From Escherichia coli (lineage in GTDB: Bacteria > Pseudomonadota > Gammaproteobacteria > Enterobacterales > Enterobacteriaceae): a stretch of DNA of 64,000 nt. Position 1 is the first letter of the stretch. Each line of letters starts with the position of its first letter. Shown in pieces: positions 22,782-49,132 of the stretch. The stretch lies in NCBI RefSeq assembly GCF_029227855.1, contig NZ_CP074356.1. One strand, written 5' to 3'. The translations under genes and the position numbers were made by a program. The notes beneath the pieces are model-generated. The model was not told the DNA's origin and searched no databases. It saw only the letters and a list, made by a program, of their open reading frames with translations.

Positions 22782-22905
22782 CATTTTTTAACTGTTCTAC
22801 CAAAATTTGCGCTATCTCAATTTGGGCCAGGAAAGCATAACTTAGACTTTCAAGGTTAATTATTTTCCTGGTTTATATTTGTGAAGCATAACGGTGGAGT
22901 TAGTG

Positions 22906-23601
22906 ATGCTGAAGCGTTTCTTTATTACCGGTACAGACACTTCTGTAGGGAAAACGGTGGTTTCCCGCGCATTGCTACAAGCGTTAGCCTCCCAGGGAAA
23001 AACGGTTGCGGGATATAAACCCGTAGCGAAGGGGAGCAAAGAGACACCCGAAGGGCTGCGTAATAAAGATGCCCTGGTGTTGCAGAGTGTTTCAACCATC
23101 GAACTGCCTTATGAAGCAGTTAATCCTATCGCGTTAAGCGAAGAAGAAAGTAGCGTGGCGCACAGTTGCCCAATCAATTACACCCTCATTTCAAACGGCC
23201 TGGCAAACCTGACCGATAAAGTCGATCATGTGGTGGTAGAAGGGACTGGCGGCTGGCGCAGTCTGATGAATGATTTGCGTCCGCTCTCTGAATGGGTGGT
23301 GCAGGAACAACTGCCGGTGTTGATGGTTGTCGGTATTCAGGAAGGTTGCATTAACCATGCACTGCTAACAGCTCAGGCGATCGCCAACGACGGGCTACCG
23401 CTCATTGGCTGGGTGGCTAACCGAATCAATCCAGGACTGGCGCATTATGCGGAAATCATTGATGTGCTCGGTAAAAAACTTCCGGCACCGCTCATTGGTG
23501 AACTGCCTTATCTGCCGCGCGCCGAACAGCGTGAACTGGGGCAATACATCCGCTTAGCTATGCTTCGCAGTGTGCTGGCGGTAGATAGAGTCACGGTGTA
23601 A
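22906..23601 (+). CDS. ynfK: dethiobiotin synthetase paralogue (231 aa)
   Basis: ORF 22894..23601; ATG at 22906; P-loop GTDTSVGKT; 3' end overlaps convergent clcB. Confidence 0.9.
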
Positions 23602-25004: not shown

Positions 25005-25619
25005 CTATCGAAAGAGTGGTTTAACCGCGACAGGAATTAACAGTTGTGATTGCCATTGCGCCAGCGTTAAGCGAGCCAGTTCACCCAGTGCACGGTAGAA
25101 AGGGTGTTCTGCTTTTTCGATAAAAACGTCAAGAAAACGTGTTGACCACGGAAAAAGGTGCCATGCCAGCAATTCTTCGCATTCTGTCTGGCGACCATTC
25201 TCCGCCAACCACGCAGCCATCAAGAGCAGTGAACCAAAATGATCTTCCGGTTCGTTTTGCTTCATTTCAAACTGAATGCCTTTCTCGCGCATCCACTGAC
25301 GAAGTGCCAATGTTGAATCGCCAAACAGCACAGATTCGCGATCCAGCCAGACCGATCCCCACGGCGGAGACGGCAGTGCCCACGGGCCGACAAACAAACG
25401 CTGCCAGGCCTGGGCGCGAGTCTCTTCACTCTGTGCCTGAAAAGCCGTCACCAGCGGCGCTAATGACGCTTCTGGTAGAGGCCACTGAGTTTCCCAGCCG
25501 TCACGGGTGAGTACCGCAACCATGGGGGCGGCTTCCGCACTCTCTGGAGCGTAATAAAACAGCGCGCCCAACACGCGCGCCGCGACAGAAAAATTATCTT
25601 GCTGTGAAAAATGGGTCAT
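25005..25619 (-). CDS. dmsD: Tat proofreading chaperone DmsD (204 aa)
   Basis: ORF 25005..25628 (-); start at MTHFSQQDNF...; TorD/DmsD family. Confidence 0.92.
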   Translation of the reverse strand: MTHFSQQDNFSVAARVLGALFYYAPESAEAAPMVAVLTRDGWETQWPLPEASLAPLVTAFQAQSEETRAQAWQRLFVGPWALPSPPWGSVWLDRESVLFGDSTLALRQWMREKGIQFEMKQNEPEDHFGSLLLMAAWLAENGRQTECEELLAWHLFPWSTRFLDVFIEKAEHPFYRALGELARLTLAQWQSQLLIPVAVKPLFR

Positions 25620-25661
25620 TCCTAACATCCTGAAATGTGCGGGTTGCCCCGCACCAATTTG

Positions 25662-26516
25662 TTAACCTGCAATAGCCATTCCTACCGTCATGTGCAGGCC
25701 ATAAAAGAGCACACGCCCGATCATCTCACCGCCAAGTATGAGGATTAGCCCCAGAACAAGTCCGGCAACGTGAGGTTCACGGCGACGAATGAGCGGACAA
25801 AGCCAGCATCCTAGACCTGCGCATAACAATACCACACGCCAGACCTGTAAGGAGGCGTAATCTGGTACCAGTGCGCTGGCTTGTTGTACGGATGAGTGAA
25901 TAGACGCCAGAGACAAACCTTGCAGCACAATCACCCCGGCACAAGCGATCAGCGCCAGAACGCTAATGATGGCAAAGGGTGTGGTATTAAATGTAATGCG
26001 GGCTGCCCGCAGAATTGTGGCAGCAAGTATTGGACCGCTCAACAATACTGTCAGGAAGAAAGCCAGCGTAGTGTAACCGTTATGCCAGGTTGGCACTGTG
26101 TCGATTTGATACACGCAGGTCATCATCCAGACGAAAATGACGCCGAGCGCCATGCTGACAAGTAACCAGAGTTTCCCCAACGCTTGCGGCATTTTACCGA
26201 TGACCGCCACCAGCCACCATAATCCGCCAACGGCAAAAAATATGGAGCCGGCAGCAATCTCGTTACTCAGACCAGAAGCTCCGATTCGATTCAGCGAGTT
26301 AAACGCCCGCAGTGGGGATCCCAGGTGCATGACAGAGGCAATAAACCCGATGCCCATCAACAGCCAGAGGAAAAACATGCCACGAACAATGTGCTGACGG
26401 TCTGCGTCATTTTTGGCGGCGAACCAGCCAATTCCGCTAACAATCAGCGCGCCTACTACGCATTGACCCAATACGGTAAAGATAACCAGTGGCCATTCAT
26501 GCCATCCATTTCCCAT
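25662..26516 (-). CDS. ynfH: DmsC-type membrane anchor subunit of the YnfEFGH oxidoreductase (284 aa)
   Basis: ORF 25662..26756 (-); start at ATG 26514-26516 (MGNGWHEWPLVIFTV...), directly after the ynfG stop. Confidence 0.92.
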   Translation of the reverse strand: MGNGWHEWPLVIFTVLGQCVVGALIVSGIGWFAAKNDADRQHIVRGMFFLWLLMGIGFIASVMHLGSPLRAFNSLNRIGASGLSNEIAAGSIFFAVGGLWWLVAVIGKMPQALGKLWLLVSMALGVIFVWMMTCVYQIDTVPTWHNGYTTLAFFLTVLLSGPILAATILRAARITFNTTPFAIISVLALIACAGVIVLQGLSLASIHSSVQQASALVPDYASLQVWRVVLLCAGLGCWLCPLIRRREPHVAGLVLGLILILGGEMIGRVLFYGLHMTVGMAIAG

Positions 26517-26517
26517 T

Positions 26518-27135
26518 TTACACTTCCTCCGGATTAGCCAGATAACCAGTGGTATCGCCGGTTGAGCGGCTGTTGGCGTTAGGTTTGATAACAATATTGG
26601 GTTTTGTGAAATGCGCGCGCGGCAGTGGCGCGACGGCAGCCAGAGTGCCGTGCTTCTGGCGCAGCTTTTCAATTGGACCGAACTCAAGTGCACGCAGCGG
26701 GCAGGATTCGACACATATGGGTTGTTTCCCCTCGGCGACGCGCGAATAACAACCATCGCACTTCGTCATGTGCCCTTTTTCAGCATTGTACTGTGGCGCG
26801 CCGTACGGACAAGCCATGTGGCAGTAGCGGCAGCCGATACAAACATCTTCATCAACCACCACAAAGCCATCTTCACGCTTATGCATTGCGCCGCTGGGGC
26901 AGACTTTTGTACATGCGGGGTCATCGCAATGGTTACAGGAGATGGAGAGATAATAAGCGAACACGTTCTGGTGCCAGACGCCATTATCTTCCTGCCAGTC
27001 GCCGCCAGCATATTCATAAATACGGCGGAAACTGACTTCCGGGCCAAGATCTTTAAAATCTTTGCACGCCAGTTCGCAGGTTTTACAGCCAGTACAGCGG
27101 CTGGAATCGATAAAAAATCCATATTGTGTGGTCAT
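26518..27135 (-). CDS. ynfG: 4Fe-4S ferredoxin-type electron-transfer subunit, DmsB-like (205 aa)
   Basis: ORF track 205 aa; four CxxCxxCxxxCP clusters. Confidence 0.95.
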   Translation of the reverse strand: MTTQYGFFIDSSRCTGCKTCELACKDFKDLGPEVSFRRIYEYAGGDWQEDNGVWHQNVFAYYLSISCNHCDDPACTKVCPSGAMHKREDGFVVVDEDVCIGCRYCHMACPYGAPQYNAEKGHMTKCDGCYSRVAEGKQPICVESCPLRALEFGPIEKLRQKHGTLAAVAPLPRAHFTKPNIVIKPNANSRSTGDTTGYLANPEEV

Positions 27136-27145
27136 GGGCTACTCC

Positions 27146-29572
27146 TTAAACCTTTTCGATCTGGACAAGATTGCTGTGCGACGGGTTTCCCTTTGCCAGC
27201 GGTGAAGGGCGGTGAGAGGTCAGAATATTGATACTGCCGCCGTGATCGACCCGGTCACCAAACATATCCGCTTTAAGCCACGCACCTTGCCCGATGGCGG
27301 TAACGCCAGGCAGAATACGCGGAGTCACTTTTGCGGCAATCAGCATTTCTCCATTATTGTTAAATACCCGCACGGTATCGCCATGACGGATACCGCGTGC
27401 CTGAGCATCAATAGGGTTGATCCACACCTCTTGTGGGCAGGCCTGCTGTAACACATCAATATTGCCGTAGCTGGAGTGGGTACGCGCTTTGTAGTGGAAG
27501 CCCGTTAGCTGCAGTGGATAGGTTTTCCGCAGGGGATCGTCCCAGCCATCAAAACCTGGCGTATACGCAGGAAGGGGATGAATAATTTCATCTTTTTTCA
27601 ATTCCCAGGTATCCGCAATCGTCGCCAGTCGTTCAGAATAAATTTCGATTTTCCCCGAAGGTGTTTTCAACGGGTTTGCCTGTGGATCTTCACGGAATGC
27701 GCGGAAAGCGACGTAGTGTTCTTCCGGGCATTTTTTCTTAAAGATCCCGGTCGTTTTCATCTCCTCGTAGTCGGGCATCTCAGGGTTACGTTCCTTCGTT
27801 TTCGCATGGAGATATTTGATCCATTCGTGCTGACTGCGACCTTCAGTAAAGGTTTGATAAACGTCTGGTCCTAAGCGTTTGGCAACTTCACTCAGAATCC
27901 AGTAGATGGGTTTGCGTTCAAATTTTGCTGAGGTTGCGGGTTGGGCGAGGATCACATAGCCCATATTCCCGGCAGATTCATGAGAGATAAGGTCTTCTTG
28001 CTCTGTTGGCATCAGGTCGGGCAACAGGATATCGCAATACTTAGCCGAGGCAGTCATGAAGTGGTCAATGCCAACAATCATCTCGCACTTGCTGTCATCC
28101 TGAAGCACCTCATGGGTGTGATTGATGTCGCCATGTTGATTGATCAATGTGTTACTGGCGTAGCACCATAAAAACTTGATGGGGACATCCAGTTTTTCTT
28201 TTCCACGAACACCATCACGGGTCGCGGTCATTTCCGTACCGTGGTCGATGGCATCTGTCCATGTAAAGACGGAAATCTGCGTTTTAACAGGATTCTCAAG
28301 CATCGGGAACCATTCTACCCCCAGATCCCAGCTACCTTCGCGTACACCTGAGTTGCCGCCGTTTATGCCGACGTTACCGGTGAGAACGGAAAGCATGGCA
28401 ATAGCGCGGGACGTTTGTTCGCCGTTGGAGTGTCGTTGTGGCCCCCAACCCTGACAAATATAAGCAGGTTTTGCTGAACCGATCTCTCGTGCCAACTGGA
28501 TAATTTTTTCTGCCGGGATGCTGGTGATTTTTGCTGCCCATTCCGGCGTTTTAGCTATGCCGTCAGGCCCTTCGCCCAGAATATAGGCTTTATAATGCGC
28601 GTTACGTGGTGCGTTGGCGGGCAGCGTTTTTTCATCGTAACCAACACAATATTTGTCGAGAAATGGCTGATCGACCATGTTCTCAGTAATCAGTACCCAG
28701 GCAATCGCACAGGCCAGTGCGCCATCGGTGCCTGGGCGAATTGGCAGCCATTCATCTTCACGCCCGGCAGCAGTGTCGTTATAACGTGGATCGATGACGA
28801 TCATGCGTGCGTTTGAACGTTCGCGGGCTTGCTCGACGTAGTAAGTGACACCACCGCCGCTCATCCGCGTTTCTGCCGGGTTATTTCCGAACATAACGAC
28901 CAGTTTCGTATTGGCGATATCATCCGGGCTGTTGCCATCATTGGCACCGAACATATAACTCATCGCGGCACTGATCTGTGCGGTACTGTAGCTACCATAG
29001 CGACTGAGAAAACCACCGCAAGAGTTCATCAGACGGTACGGGACGTTTGAGTTGGTGATGTTTCCGCCATCTACGCCTGTTCCGTACAGGACATGTACAG
29101 CCTCATTGCCGTAATCTTTAAGGATCCGCCGAAGATTATCACTGATGGTATCCAGGGCTTCATCCCAACTTATCCGTTCAAATTTACCTTCACCGCGCTT
29201 GCCGACGCGCTTCATGGGATATTTCAACCTGTCAGGATGATTCATCCGTCGGCGGATAGAGCGCCCGCGTAAACATGCCCGAACCTGATGATTACCGTAA
29301 ACGTCGTCACCTGTCGTATCAGACTCCACCCAGTACACGGTGTCATCTTTCACATGCAAACGTAACAGACAGCGGCTCCCGCAGTTAACGGTGCAGGAAC
29401 TCCAGACCGCTTTCTCTCCTACCGGTGCCTCTGCCGCTCGGACCATTTGGGAAAATGGCAGAGTGAAAGCACTGCTTGCCAGCGCAAGACTGCCAAGTGC
29501 GGAGGTTTTCATCAGACTTCTACGGCTGATTTCAGCCTTCATGAGCGCCTCTGTGGTATGGATTTTCATCAT
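27146..29572 (-). CDS. ynfF: Tat-exported molybdopterin oxidoreductase catalytic subunit, DmsA paralogue (807-808 aa)
   Basis: ORF track 808 aa; twin-arginine signal SRRSLMKTSALGSLALA; alternative start one codon downstream (29569). Confidence 0.95.
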   Translation of the reverse strand: MMKIHTTEALMKAEISRRSLMKTSALGSLALASSAFTLPFSQMVRAAEAPVGEKAVWSSCTVNCGSRCLLRLHVKDDTVYWVESDTTGDDVYGNHQVRACLRGRSIRRRMNHPDRLKYPMKRVGKRGEGKFERISWDEALDTISDNLRRILKDYGNEAVHVLYGTGVDGGNITNSNVPYRLMNSCGGFLSRYGSYSTAQISAAMSYMFGANDGNSPDDIANTKLVVMFGNNPAETRMSGGGVTYYVEQARERSNARMIVIDPRYNDTAAGREDEWLPIRPGTDGALACAIAWVLITENMVDQPFLDKYCVGYDEKTLPANAPRNAHYKAYILGEGPDGIAKTPEWAAKITSIPAEKIIQLAREIGSAKPAYICQGWGPQRHSNGEQTSRAIAMLSVLTGNVGINGGNSGVREGSWDLGVEWFPMLENPVKTQISVFTWTDAIDHGTEMTATRDGVRGKEKLDVPIKFLWCYASNTLINQHGDINHTHEVLQDDSKCEMIVGIDHFMTASAKYCDILLPDLMPTEQEDLISHESAGNMGYVILAQPATSAKFERKPIYWILSEVAKRLGPDVYQTFTEGRSQHEWIKYLHAKTKERNPEMPDYEEMKTTGIFKKKCPEEHYVAFRAFREDPQANPLKTPSGKIEIYSERLATIADTWELKKDEIIHPLPAYTPGFDGWDDPLRKTYPLQLTGFHYKARTHSSYGNIDVLQQACPQEVWINPIDAQARGIRHGDTVRVFNNNGEMLIAAKVTPRILPGVTAIGQGAWLKADMFGDRVDHGGSINILTSHRPSPLAKGNPSHSNLVQIEKV

Positions 29573-29629: not shown

Positions 29630-32056
29630 TTATATTTTTTCGATCTCGACCAGATTAGTGTGCTGCGGGTTTCCCTTCGCCAGTGGTGAAGGGCGCAGAG
29701 TGGTTAGCGTATTCACACAGCCGCCGTGGTCGATTTTATCGCCAGACATATTGGCCTCGTGCCAGGCTCCCTGGCCCATAGCGCTAACCCCAGGGAGAAT
29801 GCGTGGTGTTACTTTGGCTGGTAGCCGAACTTCGCCACGATGGTTAAACACCCGCACCATATCGCCGTTGGCAATCCCACGTTTCTGTGCATCTATAGGG
29901 TTGATCCACACCTCCTGACGGCAGGCTGCCTTCAGGACATCAATGTTGCCGTAGGTCGAGTGAGTACGGGATTTGTAATGGAAACCAAACAGTTGCAGTG
30001 GGAAGGTGCTACGTTCAGGGGAGTCCCAGCCTTCAAAGGTTGAGGCATAAACCGGCAGTGGGCTTATCACTTCATCTTTTTCCAGTTCCCAGGTACGGGC
30101 AATTTCCGCCAGCTTGCTGGAGTAAATTTCAATCTTACCGGAAGGCGTTTTAAGTGGATTTGCCTCGGGGTCGTCACGAAATGCTTTGTAGGCGACAAAA
30201 TGACCATTGGGATCTTTACGCTTATAGATACCCATTTTTTTCAGTTCGTCGTAAGACGGTAACGCCGGATCTTTGGCAAGCATTTTGGCGTACAGATGTT
30301 GTAACCATTGTTCCTGAGTGCGACCTTCAGTGAACTTTTGATAGACTTCAGGTCCAAGACGTTTCGCGACTTCACTCAGGATCCAGTAAATCGGTTTGCG
30401 TTCGAATTTTTCGCTGGTGACTGGCTGAAGGAAAATGAGATATCCCATGTTACCGGCGTAGTCGTTAGGAATAATATCTTCCTGCTCAACGGTCATCAGG
30501 TCTGGCAGCAGAATGTCGGCATATTTTGCCGATGAGGTCATAAAGTTTTCGATGACCACAATCATTTCGCATTTCGATTCGTCCTGCAGAATTTCATGCG
30601 TTTTGTTGATGTCAGAATGCTGATTAACCAGGGTATTTCCCGCGTAGTTCCAGATGAACTTAATGGGCACATCCAGTTTATCTTTGCCGCGGACGCCGTC
30701 GCGGATTGCCGTCATTTGCGGGCCATGATCGATAGCATCCGTCCAGCTGAAGCAGGAGATTGACGTTTTAACCGGATTATCCAGCACCGGCAGGCGTTCT
30801 ATGGTAATGGTATAGGTCGATTCACGCGCGCCACTATTTCCGCCGCTGATGCCGACATTGCCCGTCAAAATAGGCAACATCGCAATAGCGCGTGCAGTCA
30901 GTTCGCCGTTTGCCTGGCGTTGCGGCCCCCAGCCCTGGCAGATATAAGCGGGTTTTGCTGTGCCAATTTCACGCGCCAGTTTGATGATACGGTCCACCGG
31001 GATACCGGTAATTTGCGAAGCCCACTGCGGCGTTTTCGCTGTTTTATCGTCACCTTCACCAAGAATATAGGCTTTATAGTGACCATTTTTTGGTGCATCT
31101 GCGGGTAAGGTTTTTTCGTCATAGCCGACGCAGTATTTATCGAGAAAAGGTTGATCAACGAGATTTTCGTTAATCAATACCCAGGCAATACCCGCAACCA
31201 GCGCGGCATCGGTGCCCGGGCGAATAGGAAGCCATTCATCTTCACGACCGGCAGCCGTATCGGTATATCGCGGATCGATAACAATCATTTTTGCGTTCGA
31301 TTTCTCGCGCGCTTTTTCAAGAAGATAAGTGATGCCACCACCGCTCATGCGGGTTTCTGCCGGGTTGTTACCAAACATCACGACCAGCTTGCTGTTTTCA
31401 ATATCCGTGGTGCTGTTGCCATCATTACTGCCGTAGGTGTAGGGCATGGCACAGGAAATTTGCGCGGTGCTGTAGGAGCCATACTGGTTGAGTGAACCGC
31501 CGTAGCAGTTCATCAGGCGTTTGACCGCCGAGGCGGATGGCGAAGAGCGGGTCATATTGCCGCCAACGATCCCTGAAGAGTACTGAATATATACAGCCTC
31601 ATTGCCATATTGTTCGACGGTTTTTTTCAGGCTACTGGCCATAGTATCCAGGGCTTCATCCCAGCTAATCCGTTCGAATTTGCCTTCGCCGCGTTTGCCC
31701 ACGCGTTTCATTGGGTAATTCAAGCGATCGGGATGATTAATACGCCGACGGATGGAGCGACCGCGCAAACAGGCACGTACTTGATGATTGCCATACTCGT
31801 CGTTGCCGGTGTTGTCAGTTTCCACCCAGGTCACTTCATTATCTTTAACATGCAGACGAAGTGCACAGCGGCTACCACAGTTGACGGAACAGGCACCCCA
31901 GACCACTTTCTCGCTGGCCTGCTGTACCGCTGCCGCTGCACTGCGCAGGGTGAACGGTAAAGAAAAACCGCCTGCAGCCAGCGCCAGAGAACCTATCGCG
32001 GTAGATTTAACGAGTGTTCTGCGGCTGATGCCCACCATTTGTTCATTTTTGGACAT
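29630..32056 (-). CDS. ynfE: Tat-exported molybdopterin oxidoreductase catalytic subunit (putative selenate reductase), 808 aa
   Basis: ORF track 808 aa; twin-arginine signal SRRTLVKSTAIGSLALA; long stretches identical to YnfF. Confidence 0.95.
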   Translation of the reverse strand: MSKNEQMVGISRRTLVKSTAIGSLALAAGGFSLPFTLRSAAAAVQQASEKVVWGACSVNCGSRCALRLHVKDNEVTWVETDNTGNDEYGNHQVRACLRGRSIRRRINHPDRLNYPMKRVGKRGEGKFERISWDEALDTMASSLKKTVEQYGNEAVYIQYSSGIVGGNMTRSSPSASAVKRLMNCYGGSLNQYGSYSTAQISCAMPYTYGSNDGNSTTDIENSKLVVMFGNNPAETRMSGGGITYLLEKAREKSNAKMIVIDPRYTDTAAGREDEWLPIRPGTDAALVAGIAWVLINENLVDQPFLDKYCVGYDEKTLPADAPKNGHYKAYILGEGDDKTAKTPQWASQITGIPVDRIIKLAREIGTAKPAYICQGWGPQRQANGELTARAIAMLPILTGNVGISGGNSGARESTYTITIERLPVLDNPVKTSISCFSWTDAIDHGPQMTAIRDGVRGKDKLDVPIKFIWNYAGNTLVNQHSDINKTHEILQDESKCEMIVVIENFMTSSAKYADILLPDLMTVEQEDIIPNDYAGNMGYLIFLQPVTSEKFERKPIYWILSEVAKRLGPEVYQKFTEGRTQEQWLQHLYAKMLAKDPALPSYDELKKMGIYKRKDPNGHFVAYKAFRDDPEANPLKTPSGKIEIYSSKLAEIARTWELEKDEVISPLPVYASTFEGWDSPERSTFPLQLFGFHYKSRTHSTYGNIDVLKAACRQEVWINPIDAQKRGIANGDMVRVFNHRGEVRLPAKVTPRILPGVSAMGQGAWHEANMSGDKIDHGGCVNTLTTLRPSPLAKGNPQHTNLVEIEKI

Positions 32057-32155
32057 AACTCACTCCCTGTTCTTTATCGTTATATAAAAGTTTATATATT
32101 GAATATTTAGCGCGCTAACAATAGAGGGAGTCTACCTATTTTGGGTTAAGAATTA

Positions 32156-32169
32156 TTAATCCATATCAA
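32156..32169 (-). promoter_or_regulatory. candidate FNR-type site upstream of ynfE
   Basis: Minus strand reads TTGAT-ATGG-ATTAA (one mismatch to TTGAT-N4-ATCAA), ~105 bp upstream of the ynfE ATG; anaerobic oxidoreductase operon. Confidence 0.3.
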
Positions 32170-32254
32170 TAGAAGGGTATGAGTAATAAGGTGGGATTAT
32201 GTTGTATGTTCAAATCGCCGGATGTGTCGTATCCGGCGTGCAGTCGATAATGTG

Positions 32255-32560
32255 TTACTGCGGTTCGGCAGGCGCGCCATCCTGGGTAGACTGCGCGGGA
32301 GCAGAGACGTTACCGCTGGTGGTGCGGGTGTAGAGAATTTTATGCGTATCATTAGCGCAATGCCCGACGACCTGGGAATCAGGCTGATCAACCTGGTCAT
32401 TGGGTACAATACTTAACGTGAAGCTGCTTTCGGGAACGCCATTATTGATAATGCGCTGTGATATATCGCTCTGTATGCGCTCACAGGATCCCGGCGCGGC
32501 GAGTACCGCGGGTGAGGCGAGGGCGAGCAGAAGCGCGGCACAGCAGGTTGAGAGTTTCAT
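32255..32560 (-). CDS. ynfD: secreted DUF1161-family protein YnfD (101 aa)
   Basis: ORF 32255..32602 (-); start at ATG 32558-32560 (MKLSTCCAALLLALASPAVLA); signal peptide. Confidence 0.88.
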   Translation of the reverse strand: MKLSTCCAALLLALASPAVLAAPGSCERIQSDISQRIINNGVPESSFTLSIVPNDQVDQPDSQVVGHCANDTHKILYTRTTSGNVSAPAQSTQDGAPAEPQ

Positions 32561-32667
32561 CATAAGCTCCTTACGCGAAGATAACTTCTTTAAGCATAGC
32601 ATTTAACGTGTAAAGTACTGTATTTGCTACTATGATTGAGAATCATCTCTACTCTCTGGTGACTGTT

Positions 32668-33378
32668 GTGAAATACAAATTACTGCCATGCTTACTCGCG
32701 ATATTCCTCACAGGATGTGACCGAACAGAGGTAACACTTTCATTTACCCCTGAGATGGCCAGTTTCTCTAATGAATTCGATTTTGATCCGCTGCGTGGTC
32801 CGGTAAAAGATTTCACTCAGACATTAATGGATGAGCAAGGTGAAGTGACGAAACGTGTTTCGGGGACTTTGTCGGAAGAAGGCTGTTTTGATTCACTCGA
32901 ATTACTGGATCTGGAAAATAATACCGTGGTTGCCCTGGTACTGGACGCCAATTATTACCGTGATGCCCAGACACTGGAGAAAAGAGTTCGTTTGCAGGGA
33001 AAATGCCAGCTAGCAGAATTACCTTCTGCCGGGGTGAGTTGGGAAACCGATGATAATGGCTTTGTGATTAAAGCCAGCAGCAAACAGATGCAGATGGAAT
33101 ATCGCTATGATGATCAGGGGTATCCGCTGGGTAAAACCACGAAAAGTAACGACAAAACATTATCTGTTAGCGCCACGCCATCAACGGACCCGATCAAAAA
33201 ATTAGATTACACAGCGGTTACTTTACTGAATAATCAAAGAGTTGGTAATGTAAAACAGAGCTGTGAATATGACAGTCACGCCAATCCGGTGGACTGTCAG
33301 CTAATCATTGTTGATGAAGGAGTAAAACCCGCCATCGAACGGGTTTACACCATCAAAAATACTATCGATTATTATTAA
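32668..33378 (+). CDS. ynfC: UPF0257 lipoprotein YnfC (236 aa)
   Basis: ORF 32632..33378; preferred GTG start at 32668 (MKYKLLPCLLAIFLTGCDR), lipobox LTGC; ATG 32632 is an alternative. Confidence 0.85.
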   Translation: MKYKLLPCLLAIFLTGCDRTEVTLSFTPEMASFSNEFDFDPLRGPVKDFTQTLMDEQGEVTKRVSGTLSEEGCFDSLELLDLENNTVVALVLDANYYRDAQTLEKRVRLQGKCQLAELPSAGVSWETDDNGFVIKASSKQMQMEYRYDDQGYPLGKTTKSNDKTLSVSATPSTDPIKKLDYTAVTLLNNQRVGNVKQSCEYDSHANPVDCQLIIVDEGVKPAIERVYTIKNTIDYY

Positions 33379-47417: not shown

Positions 47418-49132
47418 AACGGCTAATAGTCAGTTCTTTCAGGCTTGGAGTGATTCGTGATATCGAATTTCACATTGGCGTTAATTTGATTATTGACCGA
47501 AACACCTCCAGCAAAGAGCAAACTGGAAATGGTGTGGGAAAAACTACTGTATTAAGAGCTTTAGATTTTTGTTTTGGAGCAGAACAACTGAATTTTTATA
47601 CCGATCCTGAATTCAAGAAAGAAAATTCGGTTATAAAAAATTATTTGATAGAGAACGAGATTGAGTTTTGTTTAATTCTCACAAAAGATTTGAATAATAA
47701 AACTGCACCAGTAATAAAAATTAAGCGTAAAATTACATCTGAGACTAATAAAACGAAGGTTATAGCCTCAATAAATGAAGAGTCCTATACGAAGGCTAAA
47801 GATTTCAACGAGGCTTTAAAAAGAACATTATATCTTGATTCCGCGATAAAACCGACCATACGAGAGATTATGGGACGTGTTATTCGAAATACGCATGACA
47901 AGATGTCGAACGCATTAAAAACGATAAAAATGGGTTCTAATACACAATATGAAACGTTAAATCTGTTTATGTTTGGGTTCGGTAACTCACAGATTCTGGA
48001 TGAAAAACAGTCAGTGACTAAAGCCTATAAACTGGCGAAATCCGATTATGAAGTAATTACTCGCCATCGCTCAAAGAATGCTTTGGAACAAGCTATTGCA
48101 ATTATAAATAGAGATATTATAGCACAAGAAGAGTTAATTTCTAATTTTCAAGTGGCAGACTCTTATAATGATATGCTTGCTGAGTTAAATGAGTTAAAAA
48201 TTAAAATTAGTGAAGTTTCTATCACACTATCATCTTTGGAGTTTAAGCAAAAATTAAACGATAAGGCTATACTAGATCTGGAAAAAAGTCATGAAAATAT
48301 AAATACACTAGATCTACAGAAGTTGTACTTAGAAGCAACTGATCGGTTAGGTAACTTAAACAAAGAGTTTACTGAGCTACTTTCGTTTCATAATAAAATG
48401 CTTGTAAAAAAAGCTGAGTTTATTAGAAAACAAATGCAGCCAGTGCTGCAAGAAATTTCCAAATATAAAGATGAACTAAATAATTTATTGACTCAAGAAT
48501 CAGAGCTTTTAAAGAGTTTGTCTTCGCATGGGACATTGGCAGACCTGCAAATAATGCAAAAAAAATTAAATTCATTATTTGAAGAAAAAGGTGGGCTTGA
48601 AGCTGGACTACTTCAAATCCAAGAGATGGAGAACAACTTTAATATACTGAAAGCAAAGTTTAATGATGTGTCAGATAGATTAAAATCTAAACTTGACGAT
48701 TTTAACAAACGTCTTGCGCTATTCAATTCCTATTTTTCTTTATATACTAAAAAATTATATCAGGATGAATATATTCTTTCCTATAAAGATTCCTCCGGTT
48801 CTTTCGTTTTTACCATTGAACCTTTAGGAACTTTGCTCACATCAGGTAATCAGGGAGAAGGAAAAAAGAAAGCCCAGGTTGCCTCTTTAGATTTTGCCTA
48901 TTTATCTGTCCAGGAGTCTTTAGAAGCCAGAACACCACGTTTTATAGCTCATGATGGAATTGAGGCAATTCATGTAAATCAAATAAATAAGTTATTCGAG
49001 ATAGCTTCGGGGATTAATGGTCAATATATATTGGCTATTCTTAAAGACAAGTTGGAGAATATTGATCAAGACTTCATCAATAATAGTGTTGTGCTTGAGC
49101 TTGGGGAGGACGATAAGTTTTTTAGGCTTTAA
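47408..49132 (+). CDS. SMC/Rad50/ABC-type coiled-coil ATPase (574 aa), fourth gene of the AT-rich cassette
   Basis: N-terminal P-loop TGNGVGKTTVLRALDFCFG (RecF/SMC-type Walker A); ~300-aa heptad-rich central region; C-terminal TSGNQGEG (signature-like) followed by RFIAHDGIEAIH (Walker-B/D-loop-like); GGAG SD. Confidence 0.8.
   Translation: MFLKRLIVSSFRLGVIRDIEFHIGVNLIIDRNTSSKEQTGNGVGKTTVLRALDFCFGAEQLNFYTDPEFKKENSVIKNYLIENEIEFCLILTKDLNNKTAPVIKIKRKITSETNKTKVIASINEESYTKAKDFNEALKRTLYLDSAIKPTIREIMGRVIRNTHDKMSNALKTIKMGSNTQYETLNLFMFGFGNSQILDEKQSVTKAYKLAKSDYEVITRHRSKNALEQAIAIINRDIIAQEELISNFQVADSYNDMLAELNELKIKISEVSITLSSLEFKQKLNDKAILDLEKSHENINTLDLQKLYLEATDRLGNLNKEFTELLSFHNKMLVKKAEFIRKQMQPVLQEISKYKDELNNLLTQESELLKSLSSHGTLADLQIMQKKLNSLFEEKGGLEAGLLQIQEMENNFNILKAKFNDVSDRLKSKLDDFNKRLALFNSYFSLYTKKLYQDEYILSYKDSSGSFVFTIEPLGTLLTSGNQGEGKKKAQVASLDFAYLSVQESLEARTPRFIAHDGIEAIHVNQINKLFEIASGINGQYILAILKDKLENIDQDFINNSVVLELGEDDKFFRL

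Follow-up and report, generated by a model that had tools for sequence, protein, structure and literature searches.

The 14-bp sequence TTGATATGGATTAA upstream of ynfE is an already known and documented FNR operator of the class II promoter of ynfEFGH-dmsD. We are nearly certain that it serves as the single FNR operator of an activator-dependent sigma-70 promoter of this class, and that the control of the operon includes a further step through NarL. The site lies in a stretch of 64,000 nucleotides of Escherichia coli DNA (contig NZ_CP074356.1; referred to below as the window), at positions 32156–32169, where the plus strand reads TTAATCCATATCAA and the minus strand, which is the strand of ynfE, reads TTGATATGGATTAA. 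Its sequence, geometry and conservation were read directly from this window and its relatives. The near-consensus half-sites that the initial annotation had placed on the ynfE strand are present exactly as described, with 9 of the 10 specified positions agreeing with the FNR consensus TTGAT-N4-ATCAA. The promoter-distal half-site (TTGAT) is perfect, while the promoter-proximal one (ATTAA) agrees with ATCAA at 4 of 5 positions and carries T for C. The FNR site is centred on 32162.5. Counted from the A of the ynfE ATG at 32056, this is 106.5 bp upstream, and the annotated distance of about 105 bp was accurate. The position is intergenic and has the correct spacing to a -10-like hexamer.

The gene next to the site, ynfE, is an ORF of 808 amino acids on the minus strand (29630–32056) which scores 1796.8 bits with NCBIfam NF041885, above the cut-off of 1675. 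On the same strand, ynfF to dmsD complete the operon (25005–29572). These genes are ynfF (27146–29572; 1772.6 bits with NCBIfam YnfF, where the cut-off is 1650), ynfG (26518–27135), ynfH (25662–26516) and dmsD (25005–25619), as assigned from their ORFs and from the RefSeq annotation of an identical strain. The gene order in RefSeq is ynfD, ynfE, ynfF, ynfG, ynfH and dmsD, and ynfEFGH-dmsD is a selenate/tellurate reductase operon. E. coli H20 MIN6 carries an IS1 insertion at the -10 of ynfE, which parts the FNR site from the gene, and in APEC IMT5155 ynfE is annotated as frameshifted, indicating that the operon is dispensable in some lineages.

To score the site, a symmetrised weight matrix was built from 62 other ChIP-bound FNR sites (Myers et al. 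2013, Table S6), with the ynfE site left out. In this leave-one-out matrix the ynfE site scores 13.1 bits and ranks second among about 64,000 positions of the window. The training sites span 11.5–20.6 bits and 9 of the 62 score below the ynfE site; with a proximal half-site that lacks the consensus C, it is an FNR site of modest strength. The top score in the window, 14.7 bits, belongs to TTCATGTAAATCAA at 48969–48982, which maps inside a DUF2254-family gene (by coordinate mapping to strain JNEC-KY178) and is probably a non-functional, intragenic match.

The simplest competing reading is that a near-consensus match arose by chance in AT-rich intergenic DNA and has no regulatory role. Allowing at most one mismatch, the window contains 6 matches to TTGATNNNNATCAA where 3.55 are expected, and a count of 6 is reached in 17 of 100 shuffled sequences, so the bare consensus count is not enriched and was not used as evidence. 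The higher-scoring match at 48969–48982, which appears to be intragenic, also speaks for chance. The case against chance is built on the context of the site, its conservation and experiments in the literature, rather than on the consensus match itself. In K-12, the identical site lies at a ChIP-seq peak and expression depends on FNR (Myers et al. 2013, PMC3688515), the site is kept at a fixed position across genera while its flanking columns vary, and the gap to the -10 is the one seen at dmsA P1. Together these effectively refute the chance reading, to which we attach virtually no weight.

The most direct evidence comes from K-12. In Myers et al. (2013, PMC3688515), ynfEFGH-dmsD is classified as directly FNR-activated (category 1), with the top FNR site at -40.5 (Table 1), and an FNR peak at ynfE is reported from ChIP-seq/ChIP-chip. 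The identical 14-mer TTGATATGGATTAA is listed in Table S6 of that study at coordinate 1655980, with a PatSer score of 13.01 and the flag '+', which denotes a site at an FNR ChIP-seq peak. The sigma-70 occupancy at ynfE is 27 under aerobic and 709 under anaerobic conditions (Table S2), the operon is 'Activated' in the wild type compared with Δfnr (Table S8), and the aerobic/anaerobic ratio of ynfE mRNA is 0.027, i.e. about 37-fold more transcript anaerobically (Table S12). From the above, the anaerobic activation through FNR proposed in the initial annotation is borne out: comparison with the mapped FNR sites returns the same 14-mer, and the published centre of -40.5 (Table 1) keeps the site within the -41.5 region, outside which a mapped start would have spoken against the proposal.

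Control by nitrate was reported by Xu, Busby and Browning (2009, J Bacteriol 191:3172), who, as related in three independent citing papers, found the ynfE promoter to be FNR-activated and NarL-repressed. One of these three describes a biosensor trigger rebuilt from the ynfE promoter which responds only under anaerobic conditions without nitrate. FNR occupancy, the dependence of expression on FNR and anaerobiosis, and repression by NarL are thus the results of published experiments on a K-12 site identical to the one in the window.

CRP and FNR sites have the same dyad geometry. On this ground, the palindrome could be taken as a target of CRP or of another protein of the CRP/FNR family instead of FNR. 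However, the half-site reads ATTGAT where a CRP site would have TGTGA, and it lacks the G by which CRP sites are told apart. The site is also marked by FNR ChIP-seq and not by CRP data, and expression is fnr-dependent (PMC3688515). We consider CRP or a related protein a scarcely credible owner of this site, and FNR is retained as its regulator.

The K-12 promoter of ynfEFGH-dmsD (also given as ynfEFGHI) is the same locus, one core base apart (32137). The alignment with K-12 MG1655 is gapless, and the FNR 14-mer, the -10, the leader and the Shine-Dalgarno sequence are identical. Between the ynfD stop and the ynfE ATG, 4 bases differ from K-12, of which 3 fall in the hairpin region behind ynfD and 1 in the promoter core. 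The latter is at 32137 (-15), where G in K-12 is replaced by A; the right heptamer of a NarL-type repeat changes from ATGGGTA to ATAGGTA and still fits AKRRGTA. As a side observation, two tables of Myers et al. (2013, PMC3688515) disagree on the centre of the ynfE FNR peak, Table 1 having 1,656,036 and Table S5 1656063, which may be a transposition of digits in the source; by our own coordinate mapping, both printed centres lie 50–75 bp downstream of the FNR motif.

The anatomy of the promoter agrees with dependence on an activator. A -10-like hexamer, TAGACT, which matches TATAAT at 4 of 6 positions, lies on the minus strand at 32129–32134, 21 bp after the FNR 14-mer, and TAAACT or TAGACT is kept at this position in the orthologue alignment. 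A -35 hexamer is absent, as AATAAT, 17 bp upstream of TAGACT, matches TTGACA at only 1 of 6 positions. At a threshold of 9 of 12 matches, a consensus scan of 31900–32700 returned no complete sigma-70 promoter, which is consistent with an activator-dependent promoter and is not counter-evidence. When the published position of -40.5 (Myers et al. 2013, Table 1) is applied to the centre at 32162.5, transcription would start at an A at 32122 (minus strand) and give a leader of 66 nt. The Shine-Dalgarno sequence GGGAG is found at 32063–32067 on the same strand, and GGAGTGAG is conserved across all aligned orthologues.

A second alternative accepts binding of FNR and supposes another architecture (class I or repression), with the true start elsewhere, for example nearer to the ATG. 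In its favour, the start used here was taken from Table 1 of Myers et al. (2013), i.e. from K-12 and not from this strain, the printed ChIP peak centres (1,656,036 and 1,656,063) map 50–75 bp downstream of the site, and the leader is AT-rich with several TATA-like strings. However, the -40.5 was given relative to a known start, and the effect of FNR is activation and not repression (PMC3688515). Moreover, there is a single -10-like hexamer at class II distance, TAGACT or TAAACT, which is conserved and has the spacing found at dmsA P1. A different architecture is therefore judged very unlikely, and the class II arrangement is preferred.

At class II FNR promoters, a dimer of FNR carrying [4Fe-4S] clusters sits over the -35 region and contacts region 4 of sigma and the alpha subunit. 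By analogy with such promoters, FNR with its [4Fe-4S] cluster would dimerise at ynfE in the absence of oxygen and bind TTGATATGGATTAA, centred at about -40.5/-41.5. Because the FNR site sits where a -35 hexamer would be, bound FNR would recruit and activate RNA polymerase from that place. The same two contacts are predicted at ynfE, by which the weak -10 TAGACT could be used, and transcription would begin near 32122.

The closest known system is P1 of dmsABC, the paralogous operon of E. coli, which is a class II FNR promoter also under the control of NarL and ModE. Its FNR site TTGATACCGAACAA is followed after 21 bp by TAATAC, and at ynfE the same 21-bp gap leads to TAGACT. The FNR 14-mers of both promoters begin with TTGATA and are then followed by AATAATT, and a ModE-type palindrome lies downstream of the start in both. 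The FNR positions are also alike (-41.5 at dmsA and -40.5 at ynfE; Myers et al. 2013, PMC3688515). The two promoters differ in the leader (about 137 nt at dmsA and 66 nt at ynfE), in the distance from the ModE site to the FNR centre (93 bp at dmsA and 73 bp at ynfE), in the defective half-site (AACAA at dmsA and ATTAA at ynfE) and in the arrangement of the NarL heptamers. The lone departure from the consensus at ynfE recurs in the FNR sites of ompW, uspF, katG and cspA (TTAAT...ATCAA), which are bound in vivo (PMC3688515, Table S6); these are other genes with sites at other positions, and only the regulator is shared.

Within E. coli, an 801-bp regional query found matches in 5,383 of 5,426 complete E. 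coli genomes, and a 71-bp core query matched 5,036 genomes, 515 of them at an identity of at least 99%, i.e. exactly. The FNR 14-mer is unchanged in all sampled divergent alleles, even where as many as 4 of the 71 bp differ.

For a wider comparison, the N-terminal 300 residues of YnfE served as the query in a scan of species-representative genomes, which gave 80 loci. A YnfD homologue is encoded just upstream in 79 of 80 loci, which identifies them as orthologous loci and not dmsA. The motif counts refer to the best matches in the 140 bp upstream of ynfE, and since the 80 sequences are related, they are not counts of independent events. Of these 80 ynfD-ynfE loci from other enterobacterial species, 75 have a TTGA-N7-TAA core at 85–135 bp upstream of the ATG. 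The best match to the FNR consensus has at most one mismatch in 29 of 80 loci (5 of 400 shuffled sequences) and at most two in 49 of 80 (50 of 400). The columns that flank the FNR site are variable in the alignment, and by this contrast with its neighbours the site stands out as a real footprint of conservation.

The mismatch in the proximal half-site is itself conserved. Position 12 of the FNR site (32158 in the window) is T in all 75 core-bearing orthologues, and the consensus C is found in none of them. Either selection for a weak half-site or a constraint from an overlapping element may lie behind this. As a candidate for such a constraint, a -35-like TTAATA within the FNR site was considered and rejected, as its 19-bp spacer to TAGACT was judged too long to account for the conserved T.

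Control by FNR may not be universal among orthologues. In Klebsiella, Raoultella, some Kluyvera and also Pluralibacter, the orthologous position reads TTGACCrGGGATAA and reaches only 3–5 bits with the FNR matrix. The proximal half-site is decayed in Klebsiella, Raoultella and some Kluyvera, and FNR may have a weaker or otherwise organised role there. At the loci with this sequence, those of Pluralibacter included, a 7-2-7 NarL-type repeat downstream is well kept, and anaerobic control may be arranged in another way.

In the window, this NarL/NarP-type 7-2-7 inverted repeat, TAACCCA-AA-ATAGGTA, occupies 32133–32148 on the minus strand. The repeat is centred at about -18.5, 22 bp downstream of the FNR centre, and reaches into the -10 with its right heptamer. 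The repeat has 2 mismatches to TACYYMT-NN-AKRRGTA and is not significant by itself (5 matches in the window against 3.5 expected). Among the orthologous loci, a repeat with at most one mismatch is present in 41 of 80, against 1 of 400 shuffled sequences, and in 58 of 80 the distance between its centre and that of the FNR site is fixed at 22–23 bp. We infer that the repeat at 32133–32148 is the target of NarL. With the right heptamer over the -10, occlusion of polymerase by phospho-NarL would be a natural mechanism for the published repression by nitrate. When nitrate is present, phospho-NarL would most probably bind this conserved repeat, which lies between the FNR site and the -10, and so block polymerase; in combination with activation by FNR, the operon would be switched on only when oxygen and nitrate are both lacking. 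A further NarL-type heptamer upstream, TACTCAT (32179–32185), was discarded as a probable chance match, as it is without conservation even in E. whittamii.

ModE recognises CGnTATATA-N6-TAYATAnCG (TATAT-N7-TAYAT). We searched with a pattern drawn from the palindromes identified in the K-12 control regions of modA, moaA and dmsA. A ModE-like operator, CAATATATA-AACTTT-TATATAACG (TATAT-N7-TATAT), was found on the minus strand at 32078–32101, which corresponds to +22 to +45 of the ynfE leader. It has 1 mismatch to the pattern and is the sole match in the window (0.03 expected), and it also fits TATAT-N7-TAYAT. With up to two mismatches and at a fixed position, it is found in 13 of 80 orthologous loci and in none of 400 shuffled sequences. 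These 13 loci come from Escherichia, Salmonella, Citrobacter and Intestinirhabdus; their half-sites are conserved and the spacer varies. In the 80-locus set, the operator is not conserved in Enterobacter or Klebsiella.

In the part of the literature that was searched, we found no statement linking ModE to ynfE. An extended scheme can be drawn up in which the ynfE promoter would integrate three inputs, namely oxygen through FNR, nitrate through NarL and molybdate through ModE (as at dmsA), together with selection for a weak FNR half-site; we regard it as tentative and rather unlikely in this full form. Should the ModE-like operator prove real and not yet described, molybdate sensing would join the control of this selenate/tellurate reductase operon, a small and incremental gain.

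The leader also contains a perfect 12-bp palindrome, TTAGCGCGCTAA, at 32107–32118 on the minus strand (+5 to +16), whose TTAGC core is kept in most enterobacterial genera in the alignment. A role of the leader palindromes in RNA was considered and set aside in favour of protein-binding sites on DNA: the ynfE leader RNA has no significant structure, folding no better than shuffled sequences (z = +0.45), and has no match in Rfam.

On the other side of the promoter, a GC-rich hairpin follows the ynfD stop at 32216–32238 on the minus strand (-13.7 kcal/mol, z = -4.2), and it bounds the ynfE promoter region on the upstream side. Behind the hairpin there is only AUUUG, and a terminator scan of 31900–32700 called none, this hairpin included. 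It is probably a weak ynfD terminator at best, and part of the transcription of ynfD could conceivably run on into ynfE.

For the ynfE site itself, the analysis confirms the annotation and adds little beyond that, and the promoter is already in use as a biosensor part for anaerobic, low-nitrate conditions. Its layout is now placed on window coordinates, with the FNR site, the NarL-type 7-2-7 repeat, the -10, the inferred start and the ModE-like palindrome. As a real operator that could be recognised from sequence alone, the site makes a clean positive control.

A second FNR match in the window, TTGCGCTATCTCAA, lies on the plus strand at 22807–22820, about 92 bp upstream of the start of ynfK (about 22904–22906), a paralogue of bioD, and scores 9.9 bits with the FNR matrix. 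A TAGACT at 22843–22848 stands at class II distance from it, the geometry having been compared by hand. In Myers et al. (2013, PMC3688515), ynfK is listed with an FNR peak and with activation by FNR, and the match at 22807–22820 is probably the ynfK FNR site of that study.
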